Of a stretch of DNA of 64,000 nucleotides, positions 1 to 37,537 are shown piece after piece. Both the position numbers and the translations under genes were made by a program. The notes below the pieces were generated by a model that was given only the letters and a program-made list of their open reading frames with translations, made no database searches and was not told the DNA's origin. The stretch lies in the NCBI GenBank assembly GCA_944324045.1, contig CALUUT010000068.1, positions 33,285 through 97,284 of the forward strand, written 5' to 3'. The DNA is from an uncultured Desulfovibrionaceae bacterium. Its GTDB lineage: Bacteria; Desulfobacterota; Desulfovibrionia; Desulfovibrionales; Desulfovibrionaceae. The stretch's first letter is position 1; each line of letters starts with the position of its first letter.

Positions 1-2813
1 GCCGCATCCGGGACAGGTGCGGGGTTTGCGGCGTCTTGCTGTTCTGAAAGAGCGTTCGCCGCGGCATGTCCCGCGTCAAGGGACTGGTCGTCGGCGGACG
101 CGTTCGCATCGTCCGCGGCAAGCGCGGGGTCGACGCCGGCGCTTGAGCCTGGCGCAAACTGGGCGTTTTGGTTCAACGGAGGAATGTTTTCCACGGCGCT
201 GCTTGCAAGCTTGATGGGGTTCACGCCTGGAAATGGGTTCGGAAATTGAATTGATTTGGCGTTTTGCACCATGTTGTCATAAAAGGAACTGATATCCTTG
301 GCATGAATCTGGTTCACAATGGGGATGCCCGCGCTTACGAGGAAAGGCCAGATAGTCGCGGTGGGGAACATGCCGGTGAGAAGCTCCACGGGGGTAAGAA
401 GTTTGGCGGGCATAAGCGCCTTGCCGATGACGAGATTTCTGTGCGCGGCGACGTCCATCTTGACGGCCTTGAGTTTGATGAGCGCTTCTGTTTTGTTGGC
501 GGCGTCCGTGCCGGCAATGGACGCCTTAAGCCCTGTCAATTCGATTTTTGTCAGGCTGTAGGCGAGAAGCGCTCCGTCCAGCGACGCATTCAGCATGAAA
601 TTTGTTTTGAATGAGAGCGAATTCGAGGTGACGCTGGCGCCGCACGCCTTGATATCGACTCCGATTTGTCTGGTCAGATTCTCCATTTTCTGGGTATTGG
701 TCACGGTGTTGACCATGCGGACAAGGGATTGCTCCGTATAAGTGTTTGCGACTTCGTCAGCGTGCGAATCCGTGGCGCTCATGAATATGTTGGCCCCTTT
801 CATGTCGATGGCGGTCGCGGCATGCCCTTTGAACACGGCGTCTGTGGCGCAGGTCGTATTGGCGAACGATTCCGAAAGCCAGTAGTCGTCTTTGGCGGAA
901 AATTCCATGCTTTTTGCCGTAAGGCTCCTGTCGCCGCCGATATCCTCAATAAGATTGTCGGCGACGGAGAGTCTGATATCCCCGGTTACATTCAGGGTCT
1001 GGTCGCCGTGGATGGTCGCATTTCGATTTTGTTTTGTGGATTGGGCGCTTGCGCCGCTTGTTTTCTCGATGCGATTTGCAGTTTGCACCTTAAGAAAGTA
1101 ATCGCCGCCGACAAACCGGTACAATCCGTTTGTTTTTCCGTCATAGGACCCGGCGCCGGATACCACGGTATGCCGTTGTCCGCTCAGAAAATCGGCATAT
1201 GTGTTGGGGGTGGATTTCAGCACGCCGTAATTGGCTCCAAACCAGCCATAGGCGACAAGGGTTTCGGTATCGGGGTTGTGCATCTCGATGCGTTCCCTGC
1301 CGCTTAAATCCTCATACAGAATGCTGTTGTCGGCGATGGAGACGATTTTGCCCTGCGAAGGATTGTTTTGGGTGCTGACGCTTATATTGCGCGCATTGGG
1401 GAGCGCGCATTCGATATAGGGACGGTCCACGTTGCCGCCGGTGAAGCCTATGGCGACTTCCGTGCCTTTAAGCAGGGGAAAATGCATCCCGTTCCGGCTT
1501 CCCGCATAGGGTTGGGCCATGCGCACGAAACAGGAGGCGCGTCCGCGGGGAAAGGCGAAATTTTCAAAGGGAAAGGACACCTTGTACCGTCCTTCCTTGT
1601 CCAGTTCCGCATAAGTTTCGCCCTGTTCCGCATCCACGACGGCCTGGATGACGCCGGCGATTGTGGGCACAGGCGTTTGCAGCGGGGGACGGTACTGCGT
1701 GGCGGCCGGAATGCATGCAAATTCGCTCCGGCAGGCCGGCTGCTTTTCCAAAAGCAGATCGCCGAATCCGCTCATGGACAGGATATCGGCAAGACGTCCC
1801 GACTGATCGCCGCAAAGCCGGGCTGAAGTAACCATATAGGCGGCGTTGAAAGCGGCGTTCGGGTGGGTGCGCAGGCTGAAGGTCCGTCCCGGCATGAGCG
1901 CGGCGCTGTCCGCTTCGCCCTGAAAGACGCGCCGCCCGGCGTTTAGCTGCTCGGCGCGCATGGTTGCGATGAACGCCGCTTCATCCGGGGAGCGTAAAAA
2001 TTCATTGAACAGATAGACGTCGCCTTTGCCTTTTGCATCCACAGGACGTTTTGCGGCGATGGTCAGAGAGGGCGTATCCGGATTGAAGTCGCGCACGCGC
2101 AGGGACTGCGGCAGGAGCGTTTGCCGTGATGCAAAGCGGGATATGGTTTGGCCCGCGTTGCGGTTCAGTCCCTGTCCGGAGTGAAAGGTGAAGGTTTCAG
2201 GAACGGCGGAAGGGCCCGCGCCCTGATGCAGGGCTATGAGGGTTTCTCCGTTTTCCGTATGCTCAAAATAGAAGAAGACGCCCAGATATTCCATCCAGCG
2301 GGCGCAAAAATCATAATTGCTTTCATTATACTGGCAGATATGCTGCCGCTTGAAGTCCAAAGACGAGAGCGCGGAGAAATCCCATGCGTCGGCGTCAAGT
2401 TCAAGGCGCTGGCACAGTTCGGGAAAGATTTCGCGAATCGGCTTGCCGCCCAGAGGGTTGTCCTGGTCGTTTCCAAGAAACAGGCGCGTGTAGAGTCCCT
2501 GGCGCATTTTCGTAAAGCGTGGTTCAAGCGTGGCCCGGTACAGCCGCCAGCGTTTTGCGGTCCGTTCAAGGGACAAGCCGGTCACCATGCCGCTGCGGAC
2601 GGAAGCCGCCGCGCCGTCGGCCGACGTGATGGAAAGCGTTCCCTGCCGGCCGATAGCGGCGTCGCAATCAAGTTCTTCATCGGACAGAAGCAGAATATCG
2701 AACCGGTACAGCGCGGAGAGCGCCTCCGTGCCGCTGAAGCGGATGGGAAGGAGCCTTTCCCGACATCCGCTGATGCGAAAGGCCAGTTTCTCAGTGTTGG
2801 AATATATGTCCAT
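1..2813 (-). CDS. vgrG: VgrG/TssI-like spike protein, paralog C; C-terminus runs off the left window edge (at least 937 codons)
   Basis: Absent from the ORF track because it has no in-window stop. From ATG at 2813 (GAGG 6 nt upstream) the minus strand stays open to position 1. I checked the frame codon by codon at 1-300, 600-630 and 1300-1320 and by translation elsewhere. The product starts MDIYSNTEKLAFRISGCRERLLPIRFSGTEALSALYRFDILLLS. It contains YDFCARWMEYLGVFFYFEH and GMHFPLLKGTEVAIGFTGGNVDRPYIECALPN, colinear with the two neighbouring VgrG ORFs. Plus-strand ORFs 666-1307, 1368-1826 and 2148-2909 are its antisense shadows. Confidence 0.85.
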   Translation of the reverse strand, partial: MDIYSNTEKLAFRISGCRERLLPIRFSGTEALSALYRFDILLLSDEELDCDAAIGRQGTLSITSADGAAASVRSGMVTGLSLERTAKRWRLYRATLEPRFTKMRQGLYTRLFLGNDQDNPLGGKPIREIFPELCQRLELDADAWDFSALSSLDFKRQHICQYNESNYDFCARWMEYLGVFFYFEHTENGETLIALHQGAGPSAVPETFTFHSGQGLNRNAGQTISRFASRQTLLPQSLRVRDFNPDTPSLTIAAKRPVDAKGKGDVYLFNEFLRSPDEAAFIATMRAEQLNAGRRVFQGEADSAALMPGRTFSLRTHPNAAFNAAYMVTSARLCGDQSGRLADILSMSGFGDLLLEKQPACRSEFACIPAATQYRPPLQTPVPTIAGVIQAVVDAEQGETYAELDKEGRYKVSFPFENFAFPRGRASCFVRMAQPYAGSRNGMHFPLLKGTEVAIGFTGGNVDRPYIECALPNARNISVSTQNNPSQGKIVSIADNSILYEDLSGRERIEMHNPDTETLVAYGWFGANYGVLKSTPNTYADFLSGQRHTVVSGAGSYDGKTNGLYRFVGGDYFLKVQTANRIEKTSGASAQSTKQNRNATIHGDQTLNVTGDIRLSVADNLIEDIGGDRSLTAKSMEFSAKDDYWLSESFANTTCATDAVFKGHAATAIDMKGANIFMSATDSHADEVANTYTEQSLVRMVNTVTNTQKMENLTRQIGVDIKACGASVTSNSLSFKTNFMLNASLDGALLAYSLTKIELTGLKASIAGTDAANKTEALIKLKAVKMDVAAHRNLVIGKALMPAKLLTPVELLTGMFPTATIWPFLVSAGIPIVNQIHAKDISSFYDNMVQNAKSIQFPNPFPGVNPIKLASSAVENIPPLNQNAQFAPGSSAGVDPALAADDANASADDQSLDAGHAAANALSEQQDAANPAPVPDA

Positions 2814-2820
2814 GAGCGCC

Positions 2821-5193
2821 TCATGATTTGTTATACAGTCCGCACAGTTTCAGCATGGCGACCGCCGCCTCGCCGTCGTTGGGAGACAGTTTGGCCTTTA
2901 CGCCGATGAGTTCGATTTTAAACAGGTCTATGTCCTTTTTCACGCCGGCAAGGGCCACGCGCGCCATGTTTATGGCGATGTTCGTCATTTCCGCGCTGGC
3001 GGCCGCGCCAGTGACGGACACATTAAGACCGATGCTTTTGCTGGTGTTCGTTCCGCTTTCTTTGTATTTCGCCGCATTGACGTCCATATTGAAGAGCGCG
3101 GAGGTGGTCCATGCGCCTGACGGAGCGCTCAGGGACATGTTGGTCGTGGTTTTGCTCAGCATCCCGGAGGCGGACGCCGTGATTTTTTGAGCGTTCAATT
3201 CCAGGTCTTTTTGCTTGAATACGGCGTTTGCCGCGGTTTTCAAGGTGATGAAGGTCGCCGCGTCCGCAATGAGGGTTTGGGACAGAGTAATGCTTTTGTT
3301 TCCGCCCACTGTTTCAAGACCGTATCCCGCGAGAGTCTCCGTCTGAATGGATGCGGAGCAGGTTGTGCTTCTGTTGCCCATGCATTCCTCATAATCGTCA
3401 AGATCAACCGTGTGCCCGACATCGCCATCCGTTGTTTCACTGAAGTTTCCCTGAATGCGCTCGTCCCGGTCGCCTTTGATTACAAGCATGAAGTCGCCGC
3501 CATTGATATCCTCGCGATGCAGTCCGACCGTATTTTGTTCCATATGTCCGCCCACGGACAGGACGTAGCATCCGCCGGTTCCCGTATTTTCATAAACCCC
3601 CTGCCCTGAGCAGACGGTTTCGCCGTTGGGCACGGTTCCGTATTGCACGAGAGCGCCGGTGGGCGCGCTTGAGAGCAGAAGATGCTCCGCGCCTTTTTTG
3701 TCTTCAATTTCAATGACGTTTTGTTTTAGGCTCGTGACGACAAGGGAGGTCTGGTTTTTGTCTGAACGCGGGCTTGGCGTGGCCGGGTTGGGAATGGCCG
3801 CGGCGATGTAAGGCCGGTCGGGATGCCCATTTATGAAGCCGAGCATGACTTCGGCGCCTGCCGGAAGCGGAAAATGCATGCCGAATTTGTTTCCGGCGTA
3901 GGGCTTGCCCATATGCAGCAGACAGGAGGCTTTTCCGTCGGCATGATCGCTTATGTCAAAGGGAAGCCGCACCCGGTAGCGTCCCTGTTCGTCGAGTTGC
4001 GCGTATTCTTTGCCGCCCTGGGTTTCCACATGGGCGCTGAGAACCTTGGCGATGCGCGGCCATGGGGTCGCGCGTTTCGGGCGATATGGCGCGTTCGCGT
4101 CAAGACAGATGAAACGGTTGGCGTATACGGACGCGCTTTGCGTCTTGCGCGAGCCAAGATCGGCCTTTAAAAAGCGTATGATCTGAGCGGACTGATCTAT
4201 TTCATGAATGACGGACTCCACGCGAAAAGAGGCGTTGAGCGCGTCGTCCGGGTGATCGCGCAGGGCGAATATTTGACCCGGACGCAGATCAGGCGCGGTT
4301 CCCGCGCCTTCAAAGAGCTGTTTCCGGCATAAAAATTCTTCGCCGCGCCGCTGAGCGATGAAGGCGGCCTCGGCCGCTGTTTTGACATGTTCGCCATAGA
4401 AATAGCATTCTCCGCATCCTGCGGGCTCAACCGGAAATACGGCCATGATGCTTTCGTCCGGGCGCTCCTGGTTGTAATCGCGCACCAGAACCTGCGTGGG
4501 CGGGATGACGCGGCGGCCGGAAAAGGCATGGATGAATCCTTCGCGTCTGGGTTCGAGGCCGAAATGTTCGGAATAGGGAAGAGGATGCGCAAGGACGCCG
4601 GATGCGGCGTTTTCGTCCACAATCAGGATATCTGTTTCTGAATCATGGTCAAAATAAAATGCCGCGCCCAGAAATTCCAGCCAGCGGGCGCAGAAGTTGA
4701 AGAAGCTTTCCTCATACTGGCAGACGTAACGGCGTCGGAATGTTCCATCCATTCGCCGGAAATCGAAATGGGCGTCGGGCAGCCCGCCTTGCCGCGCCGC
4801 TTTGACAAGAATGTCCCGGACAGGGGTTCCGGGGTTGGCGTCGGACTGGTCCGCATCAAGAAAAACCTGACTGTATTCCGTGAGCGTCAGCAGCCAGGCG
4901 TGGGGACGCAATTCCAGCTCATAAATGAAACCCGTGGGCGTGCGTTCCAGTTCGGCAAAAGCGGCCGTCACGCCGTGCCGGCGATGTTCCCGGCCTTCGT
5001 AATCGGTGAAGAGCAGCGTCGCGGGATGTCCAAGCGGAAGGGAAACGTCCACGCGCTGTTTTGCATAGAGGATGCAGCGAAATACATATAAAGAGGAGAG
5101 CGCTTCTTCTCCATGAACGCTGACGACCGAGAACCTATCCCTGTCGCCGTCGACAAGGATGACGCACCGGATATCGTTGGAATAAGCGGGCAT
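2821..5193 (-). CDS. vgrG: VgrG/TssI-like spike protein, paralog B
   Basis: 795-aa ORF 2821..5208. The maximal start is TTG; the ATG at 5193 has AAGGAAA upstream. gp27-like N-terminus (FSVVSVHGEEALSSLYVFRC, FNFCARWLEFLGAAFYFDH). gp5 OB-fold motif GMHFPLPAGAEVMLGFINGHPDRPYIAAAIPNP. Repetitive beta-helix-like C-terminus. Confidence 0.88.
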   Translation of the reverse strand: MPAYSNDIRCVILVDGDRDRFSVVSVHGEEALSSLYVFRCILYAKQRVDVSLPLGHPATLLFTDYEGREHRRHGVTAAFAELERTPTGFIYELELRPHAWLLTLTEYSQVFLDADQSDANPGTPVRDILVKAARQGGLPDAHFDFRRMDGTFRRRYVCQYEESFFNFCARWLEFLGAAFYFDHDSETDILIVDENAASGVLAHPLPYSEHFGLEPRREGFIHAFSGRRVIPPTQVLVRDYNQERPDESIMAVFPVEPAGCGECYFYGEHVKTAAEAAFIAQRRGEEFLCRKQLFEGAGTAPDLRPGQIFALRDHPDDALNASFRVESVIHEIDQSAQIIRFLKADLGSRKTQSASVYANRFICLDANAPYRPKRATPWPRIAKVLSAHVETQGGKEYAQLDEQGRYRVRLPFDISDHADGKASCLLHMGKPYAGNKFGMHFPLPAGAEVMLGFINGHPDRPYIAAAIPNPATPSPRSDKNQTSLVVTSLKQNVIEIEDKKGAEHLLLSSAPTGALVQYGTVPNGETVCSGQGVYENTGTGGCYVLSVGGHMEQNTVGLHREDINGGDFMLVIKGDRDERIQGNFSETTDGDVGHTVDLDDYEECMGNRSTTCSASIQTETLAGYGLETVGGNKSITLSQTLIADAATFITLKTAANAVFKQKDLELNAQKITASASGMLSKTTTNMSLSAPSGAWTTSALFNMDVNAAKYKESGTNTSKSIGLNVSVTGAAASAEMTNIAINMARVALAGVKKDIDLFKIELIGVKAKLSPNDGEAAVAMLKLCGLYNKS

Positions 5194-5217
5194 GGCGTTT
5201 CCTTTCAAGGTTGCGGA

Positions 5218-7599
5218 CTAAAGGTCCAGTTTCATCAGGAACTGTTCAAGGGCGGCGCTGTTTGTTTTTGTGTCGGTCGCCGTGAGTTCCAGGTTCATGA
5301 AATTGTATCCGGCTTTTTGACCGAGCAGCTCGACTTTGAGCGCGTTGGCTTCAATATGAGCAAGTTTTGAGGACGCGGACGCGCCTTTCATGGACAGCGC
5401 CAGTCCGCTGGTCTCCGTCTTGGCGGCAGAAGACAGGGAGAGTTTGAAAACCTGCGCCAGCAGATTGACCGTATAGTCGTCCGTCTTGCTGAGCGCTTCG
5501 GCTTCAAAGCTCACGGCGTTTTTCATTTTGAACAGACAGGTTTCGTCCAGCGAATCTCCCGCTTTTACGGACGTTGAGGCATTTGAGGAACAGACCGCGT
5601 TTCCGGCCGCCTGTATCGTGATTTTGGGGGCGGTCATCTCAATGCCTGTTGGGGCCGTAATCGAGAATACGCCCCGCACGGTCTGTTTTTTATAGGTTTT
5701 GCAGGTTTCAAAATATGAATCCGCGGCAAGGATGGTTTCGTTGCCGCCGACTTTGAGCTTTCTGTTCTGTCCGATTGCGCTTGAAAAAACGCCGCCTACG
5801 ACGGATTCCCTGTTCCCTTGAACATCCAGCGTATAGTTGCCCGCGACGCTTTCCGAACGCGGCCCGGCCGTCACGCTGTTTTCATAGTTTCCGGAATGGA
5901 CGCGCATGATTCTGTCCTGACCGGCCGCTTCAAACATGCCGGCTGAAACTTCCTGAGCCATATCCGCCTGAGTGGCGAGCATGATTCCCCGCTCAAGCGC
6001 TCCGCCTTTGCCGAGAAAGGGATTTTTAAGGCCGCCTTCCATGCTGTTGCGGCCGATTTGGAAGGTCGTGGCCTGGACCGGACAATGAAAGTGAATGTGC
6101 CCAAGCCCCTTTTTGTCGTCGATGCGCACAAGGGTTTGATTTAAAGAGCGAATAACCAGTTGGGTTTGATTGTCTTCCGTGACGGGACTGCGGGTTTCCG
6201 GGTTGGGTATGGCGGCATGAATATAGGGGCGATCCGGATCCCCGTCCGCGAACCCGATCAAGACCTCTGTTCCTTTTGTCAGAGGAAAATGCATGCCGTT
6301 GCGGTCTCCGGCATAGGGTTGGGCCATGCGCAAAAAACAGGATGCCTGTCCCGCGTTTCGTCCGGATTCGTCAAAAGGCATGACGACTTTATACCGTCCA
6401 TGCTCGTCAAGCTCGGCGTATTCTCCGCTGCCCGCGGCGTCGATCTTGGCATTGAGCGTGCCGATGACTTCAGGCCAGGACGTTTTTCGTTCCGGCCGGT
6501 AGACGCGGTCCGCGCGCACGCAGGAAAAATCGCACAGATAGGCTTCTTCGCGTTGCGCATCCGCGTATTCCGCCGGGATATCCCCGGCGAGAAATGCGGT
6601 TTGGGACGCCTTGTGCCGCACGCTCGTAATAAGATACGCCTGGTTCAAGGCGGCTTTGGGGTGTCCGTTTAACAGGAACACATGGCCGGGGCGCATTCCT
6701 GTCAGCGTGCCTGAGCCGTAAAAGGTCTGTTCCTGAGCCGCAAGGGCTTCGGCGCGTCGGGATGCGATAAAGGCGGCCTCGTCCGGGGTTCGCGGGTCGT
6801 CGTCATAGATATAGACGACGCCGCGTCCTTGCGGCGAAACCGGCGACTCCGCCCGAAGCAGCAGGGTTGGTTTGTCCGGGTTGTAATCCTTGATCATGAC
6901 CTTGCCCGGAACCTGACGCAGATGTTCGACGAAGGAATAAATGATTTCATGCTCATGGGACGGCAGACCGGATTGCTCGCGAAAGGGCCGCTCGTCAGGG
7001 GACAGGCGGGGCCAGTTTCCGTCGTCGAGCGCAATCAGTTTATCCGTTCCCGAAGAATGGTCGAAATAATAGGCCGCTCCCAGATATTCAAGCCAGCGCT
7101 CGCAAAAATGCATATGGCTTTCGCGGTATTGGCAGACATAGCGCCGGCTGAACGCGCTTCGAATGCCGGAAACGTCAAAGAAGCGCTCCGGCAATCCCGC
7201 GCTGGTCACGGCTTCGCGCAGTACGTCGCGAATGGGCGTGCCCGGCTCATCCATGGATTGCCCCGGAGACAGAAAAATCCGGCTGTCTTCAGTAAAGGCG
7301 AGCGGCCGCAGGTGGGAAGAAAGCTCAAGTTCATACAGCGCGCCATTGTGCGACGCATGCAAAAGGCCGAAGGACGTCACCATTCCGTGATAAAGGTGTT
7401 CCTGGGCGCGATTGCAGGAGAGAACGCGCAAGACGGCGTCACGCCCGACAAAGGAATCCGGCGGTATGTCCGGTTCGCGGCTGAAGGCCTGGATGGAAAA
7501 GGAAAACAGTTGTGAAACGCCTTCGCCGCCCGTGAATCTGACGACAGTAAGCCGGTTTTGCACGCCGTCCACGTCCAGAAAAAAACGCAGTCCTTTCAT
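5218..7599 (-). CDS. vgrG: VgrG/TssI-like spike protein, paralog A
   Basis: 802-aa ORF 5218..7626. The maximal start is TTG; the ATG at 7599 is preceded by AAGGAAAAGGGG. Motifs LTVVRFTGGEGVSQLFSFSI, MHFCERWLEYLGAAYYFDH and GMHFPLTKGTEVLIGFADGDPDRPYIHAAIPNP. Confidence 0.88.
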   Translation of the reverse strand: MKGLRFFLDVDGVQNRLTVVRFTGGEGVSQLFSFSIQAFSREPDIPPDSFVGRDAVLRVLSCNRAQEHLYHGMVTSFGLLHASHNGALYELELSSHLRPLAFTEDSRIFLSPGQSMDEPGTPIRDVLREAVTSAGLPERFFDVSGIRSAFSRRYVCQYRESHMHFCERWLEYLGAAYYFDHSSGTDKLIALDDGNWPRLSPDERPFREQSGLPSHEHEIIYSFVEHLRQVPGKVMIKDYNPDKPTLLLRAESPVSPQGRGVVYIYDDDPRTPDEAAFIASRRAEALAAQEQTFYGSGTLTGMRPGHVFLLNGHPKAALNQAYLITSVRHKASQTAFLAGDIPAEYADAQREEAYLCDFSCVRADRVYRPERKTSWPEVIGTLNAKIDAAGSGEYAELDEHGRYKVVMPFDESGRNAGQASCFLRMAQPYAGDRNGMHFPLTKGTEVLIGFADGDPDRPYIHAAIPNPETRSPVTEDNQTQLVIRSLNQTLVRIDDKKGLGHIHFHCPVQATTFQIGRNSMEGGLKNPFLGKGGALERGIMLATQADMAQEVSAGMFEAAGQDRIMRVHSGNYENSVTAGPRSESVAGNYTLDVQGNRESVVGGVFSSAIGQNRKLKVGGNETILAADSYFETCKTYKKQTVRGVFSITAPTGIEMTAPKITIQAAGNAVCSSNASTSVKAGDSLDETCLFKMKNAVSFEAEALSKTDDYTVNLLAQVFKLSLSSAAKTETSGLALSMKGASASSKLAHIEANALKVELLGQKAGYNFMNLELTATDTKTNSAALEQFLMKLDL

Positions 7600-7723
7600 G
7601 CCCCTTTTCCTTATCCTTTTGTCCAATCAAGCGTCTTTTTTCATGGAAAAAATCTTTCCGCCATTTGCGGCGCCGCCGTTGAGGGCAAACCGCGCTTCAC
7701 CCGGTTTTTCATATGTAAAACGC

Positions 7724-10560: not shown

Positions 10561-10588
10561 TTGATACAAACATTGTTTAAATTATATT
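10561..10588 (+). promoter_or_regulatory. candidate sigma70 promoter (TTGATA - 16 nt - TATATT) facing repeat copy 1
   Basis: Hexamers read directly in an AT-rich intergenic stretch. The only plus-strand content before the terminator at 10823-10870 is repeat copy 1. Confidence 0.35.
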
Positions 10589-10647
10589 GCGCACAGGATG
10601 TTTCTGCCTTGAGGATTGTTGATAACAGCCGTTTCGTCAAGAGCGAA

Positions 10648-10811
10648 AGCAATAAGGCGGCAAAACCTAAGAGACGCTTTGCGTTTGCGCCTGGGAGAGC
10701 GTGCGTTTTTTTCCAGGCCCTGCGCCCTCAGGATACCCCGCGGGAAAAGACGCGGGTGGGGCTATATGGCCTTTTGGTCTTCGGTTTCAAACCACAGAGG
10801 AAGATAGATGG
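10648..10811 (+). repeat. conserved intergenic element, copy 1 of 3 (candidate structured sRNA)
   Basis: Aligns with 22116-22270 (+) and 37412-37537 (-). Shared 5' anchor AGCAATAAGGCRGCAAA, GAAAAG-loop hairpin cccgcg/cgcggg, and a near-identical 3' block ending TCAAACCACAGAGGAAGATAGATGG. Confidence 0.6.
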
Positions 10812-10822
10812 AAATAAGGGCG

Positions 10823-10870
10823 CATGCGTCTGAAAAACAATCGTCCGCATCTGGAAAGCGGATGCGGACG
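10823..10870. terminator. bidirectional intrinsic terminator
   Basis: aaaaacaatcgtccgcatc / tggaaagc / gatgcggacgattgtttttt. A perfect long stem flanked by an A-run and a T-run. It ends pgpA (minus) and the repeat copy 1 transcript (plus). Confidence 0.85.
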
Positions 10871-10907
10871 ATTGTTTTTTACGGGAAACGGGCTGTTTTG
10901 GGAGCGG

Positions 10908-12028: not shown

Positions 12029-12786
12029 GTCAGTATGCCTCTTCCGCTGAGCGCGCATTTCGGGCTCAAGCGCAGTTCATAGGAATAATCGGCCGCATGG
12101 TGCCGGTGAATGGAATATTCCACGGCCCTGTCGCAGGCATAGAAAAGGCGTTCCATGACCAGAACCGGGGCTCCTTCGTCCAGCTCCAGGTGCGCCGCGA
12201 CTCTGCGCGAAGCGGCTTCGGCTCTGATGATTTGCTCCGCGCCGTCGCGCACAATGCCCATGGCGTCAAGAATGTCGTGCAGGCTTTGTTCGGAGAAATT
12301 GTATTTCAGAATTTCCCGGCCAAGTTCCAGGGGCCAGTAGCTCTCAATCAGGCATACCGGCCGTGAATCCATGCATAAAAGAAGCTCGATCATGAACAGT
12401 GTTATGGATTCGAATCGTTCCAGACCGGGATGACGTTGCAAAAGTTCTTCGCCGACCTGGCATTTTTCACTGCGGATGAGCTGGGCTGAGGGCCGCGCTC
12501 CTCTGAGGCGTATCTCATCGAATATGTCCGTCAGGGCTCCCATTGCGGAAGCCACGGCATGGGTCTGGACAAAGGTTCCCTTTCCGGCCTGGCGCAAAAG
12601 CCAGCCTTCGCGGGCAAGTTCGTTTAAGGCGTGGCGCACCGTGGTGACGCTTACGCCGAATGTTTCAACCCAGTGCTTGTCAGGCGGAAAAAGCTGTCCA
12701 TGGCGCCATTCCCCGGCCATAAGACGGCGGCGTAAAGATTCCATAACCTGATAATGGAGGGGCAGTGCCCTGCGTTTGTCGATCAT
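12025..12786 (-). CDS. GntR-family (HutC/UTRA-type) transcriptional regulator
   Basis: N-terminal winged HTH (LPLHYQVMESLRRRLMAGEW..FPPDKHWVETFGVSVTTVRHALNELAREGWLLRQAGKGTFV) plus a C-terminal effector domain. Its start overlaps the bla stop. Confidence 0.85.
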   Translation of the reverse strand: MIDKRRALPLHYQVMESLRRRLMAGEWRHGQLFPPDKHWVETFGVSVTTVRHALNELAREGWLLRQAGKGTFVQTHAVASAMGALTDIFDEIRLRGARPSAQLIRSEKCQVGEELLQRHPGLERFESITLFMIELLLCMDSRPVCLIESYWPLELGREILKYNFSEQSLHDILDAMGIVRDGAEQIIRAEAASRRVAAHLELDEGAPVLVMERLFYACDRAVEYSIHRHHAADYSYELRLSPKCALSGRGILT

Positions 12787-13694
12787 GAGGCGGCCTCGTT
12801 CATGCGCGTCAATGCGTCGATGACCAGACGGGCGACATGCGCGAGAACGTCCCGGCGCATGGGCGCGTCTTTTTCAGACTGCGTGAAATAGACGGCCAGG
12901 ACCAAAGGCGCTCCTGAAGGCGGCCAGAGCACGGCGATATCATTGGTCGTCCCGTATCCGCCGCTTCCGGTCTTGTCGCCGACGGTCCATCCGGCGGGAA
13001 CGCCCGCCCGGATGCTCTCGCCGCCTGTGGTGTTCCCTTTAAGCCAGTTTTGCAGCAGCGTTCTTTGCGTTTTTCCCAGGGCGCCGCCCAGCGCGAGCGC
13101 GCGCAGGTCGGCTTCCATGGCGGCCGGGCTCGTCGTGTCGCGCGCATCGCCGGGCGTTGCGGCATTGAGCGCCGGCTCCCATCTGTTCAGGGTGAAAACA
13201 GCGTCTCCAAGTGAACGGGCGAAATCCGTGAGCGCTTCGGGACCGCCTATTTCGCGCAGGAGAAGATTGGCGGCCGTGTTGTCGCTTTGCTGCAGGGCCG
13301 CGGCGCACAGTTCGGACAGGCTCATGCCGCTGGAAAGACGCTCTTTTGTGACGGGCGACCAGGAAACAAGGTCTTTTTCCGTGTAGGCGATGTTTTTTTC
13401 CAGAAGGCCGGGCGCTGTTTCGTTTTTTTTAAGGACGGCTGCAACAAGAAGCATCTTGAAGGTGCTGCAAAACGGGAAACGCTCGTCCCTGCGGTATTCG
13501 ACGCGCCGCCCTGTGCCGGTATCTGTGGCGGAAACGCCAAGGCGTCCTCCGAATTGTTTTTCAATGCGTTGAAACTCCTGGACAAGCGAAGAAACGTCTT
13601 CTTTGGCGTATGCGTGGTTTGACGGACAGAGAAACAGGAACATCAGAAAAAAAACGTGGAGCGCGCTCAGCCCTTGCATGGCATATATTTTCAT
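12783..13694 (-). CDS. bla: class A beta-lactamase (secreted)
   Basis: All four class A signatures are in order: STFK (FPFCSTFKML), SDN (QQSDNTAANLL), the E166 loop (NRWEPALN) and KTG (GDKTGSG). Signal peptide MKIYAMQGLSALHVFFLMFLFLCPSNHAYA. The maximal ORF start at 13715 is TTG. Confidence 0.9.
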   Translation of the reverse strand: MKIYAMQGLSALHVFFLMFLFLCPSNHAYAKEDVSSLVQEFQRIEKQFGGRLGVSATDTGTGRRVEYRRDERFPFCSTFKMLLVAAVLKKNETAPGLLEKNIAYTEKDLVSWSPVTKERLSSGMSLSELCAAALQQSDNTAANLLLREIGGPEALTDFARSLGDAVFTLNRWEPALNAATPGDARDTTSPAAMEADLRALALGGALGKTQRTLLQNWLKGNTTGGESIRAGVPAGWTVGDKTGSGGYGTTNDIAVLWPPSGAPLVLAVYFTQSEKDAPMRRDVLAHVARLVIDALTRMNEAAS

Positions 13695-14171
13695 CGTTGG
13701 CGCCTTGCGGTTCAAAGGGTTATGGAAAACTTCCGGGACGGTTTCATCTTTGGGATTACGCGGAGTTCGCCTTGCGTTTCACCAAGGGAGACGATATTCG
13801 CCGAACCTCTTGGCGTTTTCGTCTCTCAACGCTATCCGGACAGGCGCAATATTTGCTGTTCCGGCTGTCTTTAAGCCGTCTGGCCGCTTTGAAGCGGCGA
13901 GCCGGCATAAGCATAGCCTTTTGAACTTCAGTTCACAATTGGTATTTAAAACGGAAATACATTCCGGTTCATGGAACATGACATATACTTTTTTCAGAAT
14001 TTTTTCATGATGGCTTTTTGCCGCAAGAGATGGAAAAGACTAAAAAAAAGAAAAAATATTGGGGATGATAATTGAGATTTTATACTGTAGTTGCTTGTAA
14101 TCGCTAAAATTTTTATTGCCTTAAAGACCCTTCAAGGCTATGGCTATTTTTAGCCATTCAAGGAGGGGAAC

Positions 14172-20277: not shown

Positions 20278-20559
20278 CTATATCGCCGGATTTCTTGAGA
20301 CAATAAAGGGACGCCCATCCGGATAGGCGTTGATGATGACCCCGCGCGTCAGCGCCAGGAGGTCTTTGTCTATGCAAAATGTATAACCGGCCACGGTCAC
20401 GACTTCATCAGATTTTTTCGGCTCGCCCGGAGCCAATGAAAAACGCGACTGCGCCCGTCAGCCGCAGGCCGGGCTATAGGCGACGCGCACTATCTGTTCG
20501 CCGGGCGCGGGAAATCGTTCCTTGAGCATCTTTTCCCCTGACCCTGTCACGCTGATCAT
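20278..20559 (-). CDS. HesB/IscA-like selenoprotein, 93 codons with in-frame UGA (Sec) at 20458-20460
   Basis: Not called in the ORF track, which stops at the TGA. Translation: MISVTGSGEKMLKERFPAPGEQIVRVAYSPACG-U-RAQSRFSLAPGEPKKSDEVVTVAGYTFCIDKDLLALTRGVIINAYPDGRPFIVSRNPAI, ending at TAG 20278. It is colinear over its full length with the Cys paralog 22475-22756 (..AACGCRAQPKMSLAPG..), with the UGA aligned to Cys. SD AAGGAGG sits 5 nt upstream. A SECIS-like hairpin lies downstream of the UGA. Confidence 0.85.
20412..20444 (-). promoter_or_regulatory. SECIS-like hairpin about 14 nt 3' of the UGA
   Basis: mRNA UGA-N14-UUUUUC AUU GGCUC CGGGC GAGCC GAAAAA. A 6-bp lower stem, a 3-nt bulge, a 5-bp upper stem and a G-rich 5-nt loop. 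The Cys paralog lacks an equivalent extended hairpin at this position. Confidence 0.6.
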
Positions 20560-20931
20560 ACTTATCCTCCTTAACAGCATAATCTTAACAGCATAATTCG
20601 AGTTGCCCGCGCAAAGACCGGAATGGGCCGGGCATCGCCGGGATTTGAAACCGCCCCTCTCTACGGGAGAAACACATTCCCGGCAGGACGGCGCAATCCT
20701 TTTTTGCAAGCCTGTCCTTGAGGGGTGGGCCATTCGCACGAGACCCATCTGCCGGCCGTGAAAAGCCAGTCGGCGGAATGGGGTAAGGCGCAAATTGAAC
20801 CATACGGCATGTCGCAGCCAACCGCAAGGCGCAAAAGCGCGCGGACAACGGCGTTCTGTTTTGCCGCGTTCCGCCTGCGGGAAAGCGGCATGGCGGCAAG
20901 GATGCGTAACGCATCGCGTTCTTTTCCCGGA

Positions 20932-22115: not shown

Positions 22116-22270
22116 AGCAGTAAGGCAGCAAATCAGGGCTTTGCGTTTGCGTCTGGGAGGGGCGTGCATCCCCTCCAGGCTTTGTGTTCCTCAGATACTC
22201 CGTGGGAAAAGGCGCAGGGTGGGACCTATGGCTTTTTGGCCAGCCTCAAACCACAGAGGAAGATAGATGA
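22116..22270 (+). repeat. conserved intergenic element, copy 2 of 3 (candidate structured sRNA)
   Basis: Aligns to copy 1 over its whole length. The variable hairpin is ctgggagggg-cgtgcat-cccctccag. Confidence 0.6.
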
Positions 22271-22283
22271 ATGCGGCGGCGTG

Positions 22284-22347
22284 CCGCGCAGGTCACGGCA
22301 TCTGTCGCGTTTGGGACAGGCGCAGTGTGATGCCGCGCGGTTTTTTT
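22284..22347 (+). terminator. intrinsic terminator following repeat copy 2
   Basis: CCGCGC..GGCATC...GATGCC GCGCGG followed by TTTTTTT. Confidence 0.65.
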
Positions 22348-22403
22348 ATACTTTTTGACCTTTCTCACGTCTTGCCAAGGATTTTCAATTCATTCCAATT
22401 TGA

Positions 22404-22440
22404 ACGCCCCGCCAGTGAACGCAGGCGGGGCGTTTCCTAT
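22404..22440. terminator. hairpin terminator downstream of the Cys-type hesB-like gene
   Basis: cgccccgcc / agtgaacgca / ggcggggcg followed by T-rich sequence on both strands. Confidence 0.6.
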
Positions 22441-22474: not shown

Positions 22475-22756
22475 TTATATCGCCGGATTTTTTGCGGTGA
22501 GAAAAGGCCGTCCGTCCGGATAGGCGCTGATGGTTATCCCGCGCGTCAACGCCAGAAGATCCTTGTCCACGCAAAAGGTATAGCCGGATATGGCGATGAC
22601 TTCGTCAGACGCTTTCGGCGTTCCCGGGGCCAGGGACATTTTTGGTTGCGCCCGGCAGCCGCATGCGGCGTTATAGGTGACGCGCAAGGTTTGCTTGCCG
22701 GCATCAGGGAATGTCGCCTTGAGCATGTTTTCCCCTGAACCTGTTATCGTGATCAT
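22475..22756 (-). CDS. HesB/IscA-like protein, Cys-containing paralog of the selenoprotein at 20278-20559
   Basis: 93-aa ORF MITITGSGENMLKATFPDAGKQTLRVTYNAACGCRAQ.... SD GGGAGGA upstream. Confidence 0.85.
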   Translation of the reverse strand: MITITGSGENMLKATFPDAGKQTLRVTYNAACGCRAQPKMSLAPGTPKASDEVIAISGYTFCVDKDLLALTRGITISAYPDGRPFLTAKNPAI

Positions 22757-22860
22757 GGTTGTCCTCCCATCTTTTCAGGTTGTCCGCATCAGGCGGAATA
22801 GAATGGGGTTCCCGATTTTTGGGCGGCATGCGCAGGGCCTGGGGAAGACGTCCGCATCCG

Positions 22861-35907: not shown

Positions 35908-37074
35908 TCAGGCCAGAAGCGTCATATCGCCGTCGAGCATGGCCAGCGCAAGGGCTTTTTCCTCCCGAAGCCGGGACTGGACCGCGCTGCGCACCCTGCT
36001 GCTTGAAGAGCCGAACTGCCGCGAGCGCAGGGCGTAGATGTTTTCAATAAGCGACTTGTCGAAAACTTCCTGATTGACGGTCCCGTTTTTCCCGCCGGCC
36101 GCGACTTTTTGTTCCGTCTTGTTCATGGCCCTTGAAAAAATGCGCGCCGCCCCGCCCGGACCATGCTGCACCGCGGTGCTGAAGAGCACTTCCTGAAGCG
36201 CCGGCGACATTTCGTTGGGGTCAAGTCCTGTGTTGCGGATGAGGGCCTGCAGGGCCGGCTTATAATGATTGTCATGGACAAAGCGGTCCTGGAGCGATTC
36301 AAACAGTTCGGGATTTTCAGCGGCCAGTTGCTTCCAGATTCGCGGCATGCGGCCGTTTCTGCCGCCCGTGTCCGCTTCGCCGGCGGCCTGAAGCCGCCTG
36401 GCCCAATCCGGCTGTTGCTTGCGCAGATATTTTATGAACTGGTCCATGGTCCCGGCGCGCGATGAAAGCTGGTATTTTCCATAGGACGTTCCGCCATGGG
36501 CGTCATATCCGATGACGGAAATATCTTCGCCTGATTCAAAATGCGCGGACAAAGCGCCGGTCACTTCGGCCGGGACGTTCGGCTTTTTGGGCGTTTTGTC
36601 CGGCGGGGTTACGGAGCCGCGCACGGCGCCCCGGCCGGATATGCCGCGTTCCGGGGAAAGATATCCCGACAGGGCAAGAAGGGTGCTGTGCGTGTTGACG
36701 ATGTTGCGCAGGGTGTCCAGGGTGCTGTCCGTGGGGCTGCTGCTTTGGGAGAGCATGTCGAGCGTGTTGAACAGCTGCGCGTTCATCATGTGCAACGTCT
36801 GCTGCGCCTTGGCCGGCATGCCGCCGGACATTTGCGACGGCGTGCGGGAAATAGGCGTGATTTTCGCCATGCCGGGCGCGCGCCCTGAGGAACGCACGGC
36901 AACGGGCCGGAGGCTTTCGCGCTCGTTTGCATCTTTTGTCTTGTCTGCATCCGCTATGGCGTCGGCAAATTTGCGGGCCTGGATTGTGTCGCGCGCGCGT
37001 TCCTGCTTTTTGTCGTTGGTCGTGGCTGATATCTGCCGCGTGGTTGGTGTTCCGAAAAGAATGCTGTTGTTCAT
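35908..37074 (-). CDS. hypothetical protein with no signal peptide, a Ser/Thr/Pro-rich N-terminal half and a globular C-terminal domain (possibly lysozyme/chitosanase-like)
   Basis: 388-aa ORF with SD GGAGGGGAG. The C-terminal segment HFESGEDISVIGYDAHGGTSYGKYQLSSRAGTMDQFIKYL resembles, from memory only, VgrG3-C/chitosanase-like cell-wall hydrolase domains. It has a sigma54-type promoter upstream and its own terminator. Confidence 0.6.
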   Translation of the reverse strand: MNNSILFGTPTTRQISATTNDKKQERARDTIQARKFADAIADADKTKDANERESLRPVAVRSSGRAPGMAKITPISRTPSQMSGGMPAKAQQTLHMMNAQLFNTLDMLSQSSSPTDSTLDTLRNIVNTHSTLLALSGYLSPERGISGRGAVRGSVTPPDKTPKKPNVPAEVTGALSAHFESGEDISVIGYDAHGGTSYGKYQLSSRAGTMDQFIKYLRKQQPDWARRLQAAGEADTGGRNGRMPRIWKQLAAENPELFESLQDRFVHDNHYKPALQALIRNTGLDPNEMSPALQEVLFSTAVQHGPGGAARIFSRAMNKTEQKVAAGGKNGTVNQEVFDKSLIENIYALRSRQFGSSSSRVRSAVQSRLREEKALALAMLDGDMTLLA

Positions 37075-37140: not shown

Positions 37141-37156
37141 AGCAAGGGGAATGCCA
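37141..37156 (-). promoter_or_regulatory. sigma54-type promoter (-24 TGGCAT / -12 TTGCT)
   Basis: The minus strand reads TGGCATTCCCCTTGCT, which has the exact consensus spacing of TGGCAC-N5-TTGCW. The predicted start site is about 55 nt upstream of the ATG at 37074. Confidence 0.55.
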
Positions 37157-37411
37157 AGAAAAATAAATTCAGTTAAAACAGGTAATTGCTTTTAAGGAAG
37201 AGGCGGCGGCGGATATCGCGCGCTGCTTTGTCAGTATTTGGACATGGGCGCGCGCCAAAAATTTGAAAGATGCGGACCGGGGAGAATGAGCGCGTATCAA
37301 CGTTTGAAAGACGGCATGATGCTCGCTCATGCGGTTTGCGCGCATGGTCTGCGCGGCGGCGTCTGTTCGATGCCGGGCGGCGCTGGAACAAGGGCGCGGC
37401 CCTGTCCCGGT

Positions 37412-37537
37412 CCATCTGTCTTCCTTATGTGGTTTGAGACCGAAGGTCAAAAGGCCATAGAGCCCCACCCCGCGCCTTTTCTCGCGGGGCATCAGATGGG
37501 CGCTTCGCGTCCTGAAGGGCTTTGCTGCCTTATTGCT
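37412..37537 (-). repeat. conserved intergenic element, copy 3 of 3 (short form lacking the variable hairpin)
   Basis: The reverse complement aligns with copies 1 and 2. Its 5' anchor AGCAATAAGGCAGC contains the TAA stop of the M48 peptidase gene. Confidence 0.6.

Follow-up and report, generated by a model that had tools for sequence, protein, structure and literature searches.

The stretch of DNA analyzed here, 64,000 nucleotides in length and in the following referred to as the window, belongs to the core chromosome of an uncultured Desulfovibrionaceae bacterium, for which the LepA protein of the closest species genome in GTDB is only 80% identical. The 49 open reading frames scanned against Pfam comprise housekeeping, flagellar, VgrG-like and similar genes. 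Two tandem VgrG-like paralogs of 795 and 802 amino acids (positions 2821–7626, minus strand) each match Phage_GPD plus Phage_base_V, and the VgrG-like region repeats at 1396–7136 with a period of about 2.4 kb, including a third, partial unit upstream. Within a core part of the chromosome, a class A beta-lactamase-like gene (12783–13715, minus strand; Beta-lactamase2, E = 1.6e-42) with STFK, SDN and KTG motifs adjoins the gene for a GntR/UTRA regulator. A 388-amino acid VgrG3-like_C/GH46-like protein is encoded at 35908–37074 (minus strand); about 70 nt upstream of its gene lies a sigma-54-type promoter (TTGGCAT-N5-TTGCT, 37141–37157, minus strand) and about 100 nt further upstream the block TTTCAAATTTTTGGCGCGCGCCCATGTCCAAATACTGACAA (37227–37268, minus strand). 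Promoter and block are near-invariant in relatives down to a protein identity of 76%, while the DNA between them varies, and the block is a possible binding site for an activator.

Interspersed among these genes is a structured repeat. A first-pass annotation made from the sequence had reported three copies, and all three are present at the positions it gave. In the orientation used there, which we keep for description, copy 1 occupies 10649–10807 (plus strand, 159 nt, covariance-model score 171.6 bits) and copy 2 22117–22266 (plus strand, 150 nt, 147.9 bits), and copy 3, a variant with an internal deletion of 41 nt, is located at 37416–37536 (minus strand, 121 nt, 118.8 bits). The three copies share 77–83% pairwise identity, and neither nhmmer profiles nor the covariance model detected any further copy in the 64 kb. 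The 17-nt anchor AGCARTAAGGCRGCAAA indeed matches perfectly three times, at 10648, 22116 and, on the minus strand, 37537; when up to three mismatches are allowed there are five matches in the window, a number reached by none of 100 shuffles. An L module, a central hairpin and an R module follow one another in each unit. The hairpin with a GAAAAG-type loop and the shared 3′ block were found in three of three copies, as described before, and the additional hairpin is present in copies 1 and 2 and lacking in copy 3, where it falls into the 41-nt deletion. In copy 1, the hairpins (all given on the plus strand) are H0 at 10660–10682 (subterminal, GCAAA...TTTGC, decayed), H1 at 10690–10717 (CCTGGGAGAG...TTTTTTTCCAGG) and the central H2 at 10737–10756 (CCCGCG-GGAAAAGA-CGCGGG). 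Copy 1 is situated between the terminator of pgpA and the AT-rich promoter region of a divergent gene for a TIM-barrel protein of 266/270 amino acids, copy 2 about 150 nt upstream of a divergent DUF3089 gene, and copy 3 begins within the last codons of a peptidase M48 gene.

The earlier statement that the repeat belongs to no Rfam family holds: no copy matched Rfam 15 on either strand, and the whole window yielded only three tRNAs at gathering thresholds. Under permissive settings, the best scores for the copies were 10–26 bits against thresholds of 34–98 bits, for eukaryotic miRNAs and the like, and represent noise; none of the copies reached the gathering threshold of the IS605/HEARO guide RNA families. 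A pattern scan with the 3′ block returned no match in 185,579 species genomes and a single chance match (L001) in JGI metagenomes, scans of IMG/VR gave seed-length chance matches only, and blastn of copy 1 against plasmids and phages found neither a match nor likeness to known IS ends. When the locus was fetched via LepA, one distant relative (80%, MAG HAN036) and 79 entries from irrelevant phyla were obtained, and the element was absent from the 1.4 Mb concerned. The covariance model likewise detected no copy in about 70 kb from relatives with 76–84% identity, and the literature searched for MITEs in Desulfovibrio held nothing relevant.

The decisive information came from the M48 locus, which was taken from the nearest relatives in public assemblies. 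The site of copy 3 is empty in L085 and L089, two contigs from ENA metagenomes with flanks 95–97% identical to the window at the DNA level and with M48 proteins that are 98–99% identical. With junctions marked by a slash, the filled site is ...GGGAAAAA/121 nt/ATGGACC... and the empty site ...GGAAAAAA/ATGAACC...; the corresponding readings are ...CGCACTGGAAAAAA/ATGAACCGGAACAGGG... for L085/L089 and ...CGCTCTGGGAAAAA/GCAATAAGG...(121 nt)...GAAGACAG/ATGGACCGGGACAGGG... for the window. The junctions fit the empty site base for base, with zero duplication or loss, in this comparison of one site between two strains. An integrase-type core repeat or a duplication of 1–2 nt at the junctions was considered and rejected, as either needs an extra indel relative to the empty site. 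It follows that a discrete unit with the termini GCAAT...GAYAG inserted recently to give copy 3, and the unit so delimited excludes the flanking ATG. The insertion cuts the native stop codon of M48 (the TGA inside AAATGA) off from its frame, and translation ends instead at a TAA of the element (37531–37529, minus strand), so that the protein has gained one glutamine and comprises 276 residues in the window versus 275 in the empty-site strains. In three more distant relatives (L004, L002 and L003, with 84, 82 and 76% M48 identity, respectively) gene order is kept and the element is absent. For the host, the consequences are incidental, namely the rewritten stop codon of M48 in the case of copy 3 and a location in promoter regions in the case of copies 1 and 2.

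Related elements occur elsewhere. A fourth copy, the best preserved of all, is located at positions 346–505 of a 936-nt contig from a different ENA sample (L087); it was recovered via a spurious ORF of 69 amino acids, the sole match when the translated element was compared with 5.8 billion proteins. Its surroundings are unrelated to the sites in the window, it starts 19 nt past the stop codon of another gene, and its junctions read AACA/GCAAT...GATAG/ATGAC. One Logan contig that represents the strain of the window ends 5 nt into copy 1, and assemblies typically break at repeats. A variant form was found in L086 (ENA ERZ17292904), where the DUF3089 protein is 90% identical and the left junction of copy 2 and the L half are shared with the window. 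Past the central hairpin, however, an inverted second L module takes the place of the R module (L086:1155–1360), which results in a 200-nt palindrome with arms that are 69% alike, a fold z-score of about −11 and H2 as the axis of symmetry; the palindrome terminates in GCAAT...ATTGC and is possibly flanked by TC/TC, an arrangement expected by chance in 1 of 16 cases. At the same locus the window contains an L-R copy, together with about 125 nt that are missing from L086. From the L086 variant it thus follows that the repeat family is modular and long-standing in the lineage. Several further observations were made at this locus. Copy 2 is followed at 22290–22345 by a terminator-like hairpin (CCGCGC...GCGCGG TTTTTTT) that has no counterpart in L086, where only the terminator of a gene for a 93-amino acid protein is kept (about 22400–22440 in the window). 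Paralogous genes of this 93-amino acid type flank DUF3089 at 20279–20570 and 22476–22767 (minus strand), with 74% nucleotide identity and no Pfam family, and the one at 22475–22756 is kept beside DUF3089 in L086.

On the basis of its hairpins and surroundings, copy 1 had been proposed to be a self-contained sRNA gene. The promoter-like sequence TTGATA-N16-TATATT does exist (10561–10588, plus strand), yet it is located 60 nt outside the repeat in the AT-rich divergent promoter region, which contains five such sites compared with 1.6 in shuffles, and it can therefore not be counted as part of copy 1. The same applies to the terminator: the perfect hairpin after copy 1 (about 10836–10884, two-way, a 23-bp perfect stem and then a T run) is real but lies in the flank, 28 nt outside the repeat. 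It is also 28 nt past the stop codon (10908) of the convergent pgpA and is most simply regarded as the terminator of that gene. Copy 3 comes without any promoter-like site or terminator of its own. That the copies represent paralogous genes for trans-acting sRNAs, or that one member of a repeat, copy 1, has become domesticated as an sRNA, could draw on the promoter-like site and the strong terminator that bracket copy 1, and on the z-score of −5.45 with which the whole 296-nt stretch folds. This value is mostly due to the terminator, however, both signals are outside the unit, and the window copies themselves fold like shuffles. Together with presence or absence between strains, insertion into a stop codon, the missing match in Rfam, absence from relatives and stem changes that follow mutation bias, this makes an sRNA function highly improbable. 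Copy 1 belongs to a family of discrete insertions that are present or absent between near-identical strains, one of them in a stop codon; the repeat is best understood as a small non-autonomous transposable element rather than an sRNA gene. The first-pass annotation had itself named a mobile repeat at unrelated sites as an outcome contrary to the sRNA proposal, and in substance this is what was found, though target-site duplications and terminal inverted repeats are lacking.

The differences between the hairpin stems, which had been taken as compensatory, have another explanation. Among the private substitutions of the three window copies, C>T outnumbers G>A by 17 to 6 on the plus strand of the window, a direction that agrees with the positive GC skew throughout the 64 kb, and in H1 of copy 1 such changes have converted G-C into G-T pairs. 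Strand-biased mutation can therefore produce apparent covariation without selection at the RNA level. As changes at neutral sites, the private substitutions report on the replication-strand mutation bias of this genome. H1 is perfect in copy 2 and in L087 and missing in copy 3, and in copy 1 it is kept solely by G-T wobble pairs that arose from C>T changes. In the intact copy of L087, the 9-bp stem of H0 (GCAAAGCCC/GGGCTTTGC) is perfect and located 11 nt from the element end; it has decayed in copies 1 and 2, and copy 3 has lost half of it. In line with these differences, the window copies reach z-scores of only −0.6 to −1.1 against shuffles on the strand of the original description, and down to −1.9 overall, whereas the L087 copy with its intact hairpins reaches −4.6/−3.6. 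As the window copies fold no better than shuffles and the L087 copy does, we regard the former as decaying.

A conserved ATG at the 3′ end had also been pointed out. Conservation was attributed to the nucleotide or RNA level because the open reading frames starting at this ATG encode unrelated peptides, and both observations proved right insofar as the post-ATG peptides do not resemble one another between copies and the repeat is a structured, non-protein-coding element. The empty site shows, on the other hand, that the ATG is flanking sequence outside the unit, and it is the complement of the target motif described below. A small protein gene might be suspected, or a cis-regulatory leader (riboswitch or attenuator) terminating in a ribosome-binding site plus start codon, since GAGGAAG precedes the ATG by 5 nt in every copy and one frame is open across copies 1 and 2. 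Such a function is nevertheless scarcely conceivable: the ATG belongs to the flank, the peptides downstream of it are unrelated, those of copies 1 and 2 run into terminators or are antisense to real genes, and indels of 1 nt break the frame. A protein-coding reading was accordingly rejected on account of the broken frames, which differ between copies because of 1-nt indels flanking a shared VGLYGLL stretch, and of the single spurious ORF among 5.8 billion proteins. A sigma-54 promoter within the 3′ block was dismissed upon inspection because of its wrong spacing.

When the insertions are aligned at their boundaries, a short motif becomes apparent on one side. It is TCCAT at copy 1 (10808–10812, minus strand, corresponding to ATGGA on the plus strand), TTCAT at copy 2 (22267–22271, minus strand), TCCAT at copy 3 (37411–37415, plus strand), where both empty-site strains have TTCAT, and GTCAT in L087; at the window copies it is in each case part of the flank and not of the element. 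Thus, YCAT adjoins the CTATCTTCC end in four of four L-R insertions, on this side only, with a chance probability of about 1e-8. The flanks at the opposite end begin with TT, TT, TT and TG, so T is the first base each time. When the L half was locally aligned with the reverse complement of the R half, inverted similarity stayed within the range of shuffles in all four copies. Past the target motifs of copies 1 and 2, the flanks at 10813–10825 (AAATAAGGGCGCA) and 22270–22280 (AATGCGGCGGC) resemble the element terminus GCAATAAGGCGGCA; by shuffling this resemblance is marginal (p = 0.04 and 0.09), and it could be the remnant of a tandem insertion, an extended target preference or chance.

All in all, we consider it highly probable that the repeat is mobile and non-autonomous. 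Absence of terminal inverted repeats, absence of a target duplication and a one-sided motif combine to the ‘peel and paste’ signature of the IS200/IS605 family. Experiments on ISGst5 from Geobacillus have defined TTCAT as its target motif, and gene-less PATE-like relatives of such elements exist (PMC10055086). IS608 inserts precisely 3′ of a tetranucleotide that is kept in the left flank, has subterminal hairpins and exhibits a preference at the +1 base (PMC5934647). On the evidence of four insertions and one empty site, we consider a mobility mechanism of the IS200/IS605 type in particular to be somewhat favored. Transposition would then be catalyzed in trans by a Y1 HUH transposase of this type encoded elsewhere in the genome. 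The transposon top strand, from left end to right end, would be the complement of the orientation used so far, i.e., the minus strand for copy 1. The left end, CTATCTTCCTC..., would abut the TTCAT/TYCAT target, followed by a preferred T, the right end, ...CCTTATTGC, would lie 11 nt past a 9-bp hairpin, and the hairpins would serve the transposase as recognition structures on single-stranded DNA. In IS608, the distance from the hairpin to the right-end cleavage site is 10 nt. Read in this way, ‘ATG(R)A’ would be the complement of the T(Y)CAT target motif and the ‘Shine-Dalgarno’ sequence GAGGAAGATAG that of the left-end terminus, and the IS200/IS605 reading thus accounts for both conserved features of the original description. 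If the motif is required for excision as in IS200/IS605 elements, copies 1 and 3 with their TCCAT may be immobilized.

Not all details conform to this scheme. Above all, neither a cognate transposase nor a full-length parent element was found in the window; a transposase or integrase domain was found in none of the 49 window ORFs scanned with Pfam, which include all ORFs of at least 300 amino acids, as would be expected of a non-autonomous unit. When the guide rule of IS608, a rule known for few elements, was applied by inspection, the right-end candidate AAGC versus TTGC fitted at two of three canonical positions, and no left-end guide candidate was recognized under the same pairing rule. The presumed left end has only hairpins of 3–4 bp, 21–28 nt in, and the strong central hairpin lies 53 nt in. 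Copy 3, the sole copy that is demonstrably recent, lacks one half of the right-end hairpin. With respect to replication, as judged from GC skew, the orientations are divided 2:1 (n = 3), copy 3 alone having the expected lagging-strand-template orientation. Finally, the L-L′ palindrome of L086 is not a normal peel-and-paste product.

The closest counterparts are PATEs, gene-less derivatives of IS200/IS605 elements described for Haloquadratum walsbyi (PMC3119063), with PATE-like elements in Geobacillus stearothermophilus (PMC10055086). Like these, the present repeat is a short gene-less unit with unequal ends and, at least at the presumed right end, a subterminal hairpin, without inverted repeats or target duplication, inserted directly 3′ of a short T-rich motif on one flank and precisely present or absent between strains. 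Unlike in PATEs, no similarity to known IS ends was found, the cognate TnpA was not found in the window, pairing between guide and cleavage site was not recognized, a palindromic right-end/right-end variant exists, and the host belongs to a Desulfovibrionaceae lineage for which elements of this kind have not been described. Weighing these points, we think it reasonably probable that the repeat is a gene-less miniature mobile element of 121–160 bp and of the IS200/IS605 type (PATE-like), confined to a narrow lineage of uncultured Desulfovibrionaceae.

Mobilization by some other mechanism, i.e., as a MITE of a DDE-type transposase with L-L′ as its canonical form or as a rolling-circle IS91-like or a site-specific IS110-like element, appears unlikely. 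In the DDE variant, the L-R copies would be rearranged derivatives of the palindromic L-L′ element seen in L086, and that palindrome, with its 69% similar arms, GCAAT...ATTGC termini and possible TC/TC flanks, speaks in favor of such a mechanism. The unit shown to insert is the asymmetric L-R form, however, which left no duplication and whose L and R ends show no inverted similarity, and TC/TC arises by chance in 1 of 16 cases. More generally, the repeat resembles classical MITEs and other modular repeats in being small, structured, interspersed and non-coding, in its potential to alter neighboring genes and in its modularity, H1 being optional and the R module exchangeable. Correia/NEMIS, ERIC and BOX elements possess terminal inverted repeats and usually target duplications (TA in the case of Correia). 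The L-R unit differs from classical MITEs in having neither, inverted arms being present in L086 only. IS91-type elements have no inverted repeats, generate no duplications and use a one-sided tetranucleotide target, all of which would suit the present repeat as well; against them and the other mobile mechanisms stands the target motif, which is the same as a known IS200/IS605 motif.

Another group with ties to this transposase family is formed by REP/REPIN sequences, which are spread by domesticated RAYT (TnpA-REP) transposases. RAYTs are Y1 HUH enzymes related to the TnpA of IS200/IS605 (PMC8266576), and the repeat shares with REP/REPIN sequences their structured, intergenic nature, a presumed Y1 HUH enzyme and, in the palindrome of L086, a doublet-like hairpin form. 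REP units are palindromes of 20–40 nt with a conserved 5′ tetranucleotide, frequently arranged as inverted doublets beside a RAYT gene, whereas the unit described here is asymmetric, 121–160 nt long and equipped with three different hairpins and an unpaired tail of 65 nt. It also has a one-sided target and a low density, with only three copies in 64 kb, and a RAYT gene was not found in the window. For these reasons we regard a REP/REPIN-type repeat as improbable.

The right ends of IS200/IS605 elements are also known to encode the guide RNAs termed omega-RNA or reRNA (PMC8612924, PMC10055086). The presumed right end of the repeat is similar in that two strong hairpins reach up to the boundary, where guide scaffolds end, and dissimilar in that there is no Rfam match on either strand and that neither tnpB nor iscB was found in the window. 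It is a decidedly speculative and improbable idea that the right-end hairpins form a working scaffold of the omega-RNA type that programs TnpB or IscB for retention, or that copy 1 has been captured as an sRNA. In the former case, transcription of each copy would have to continue past the right boundary into flanking DNA, and a TnpB or IscB nuclease encoded elsewhere would re-cut emptied sites, so that a repeat of 150 nt would secure its own retention; in the latter, the flanking promoter and terminator would have captured copy 1 as a new sRNA.

With the sRNA proposal set aside, a false candidate is removed from this genome. The case illustrates how conserved hairpins, seemingly compensatory changes and what looks like a ribosome-binding site with start codon can make a short mobile repeat resemble an RNA gene. 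While the kind of element is well known, the repeat family itself appears to be undescribed. For a poorly sampled lineage of the Desulfovibrionaceae it adds a gene-less repeat family that has been active recently and differs between strains that are 95–97% identical in the flanking DNA. If the connection to IS200/IS605 holds true, TTCAT together with the end sequences would, given a complete genome, lead directly to the cognate transposase and to any RNA-guided nuclease associated with it.
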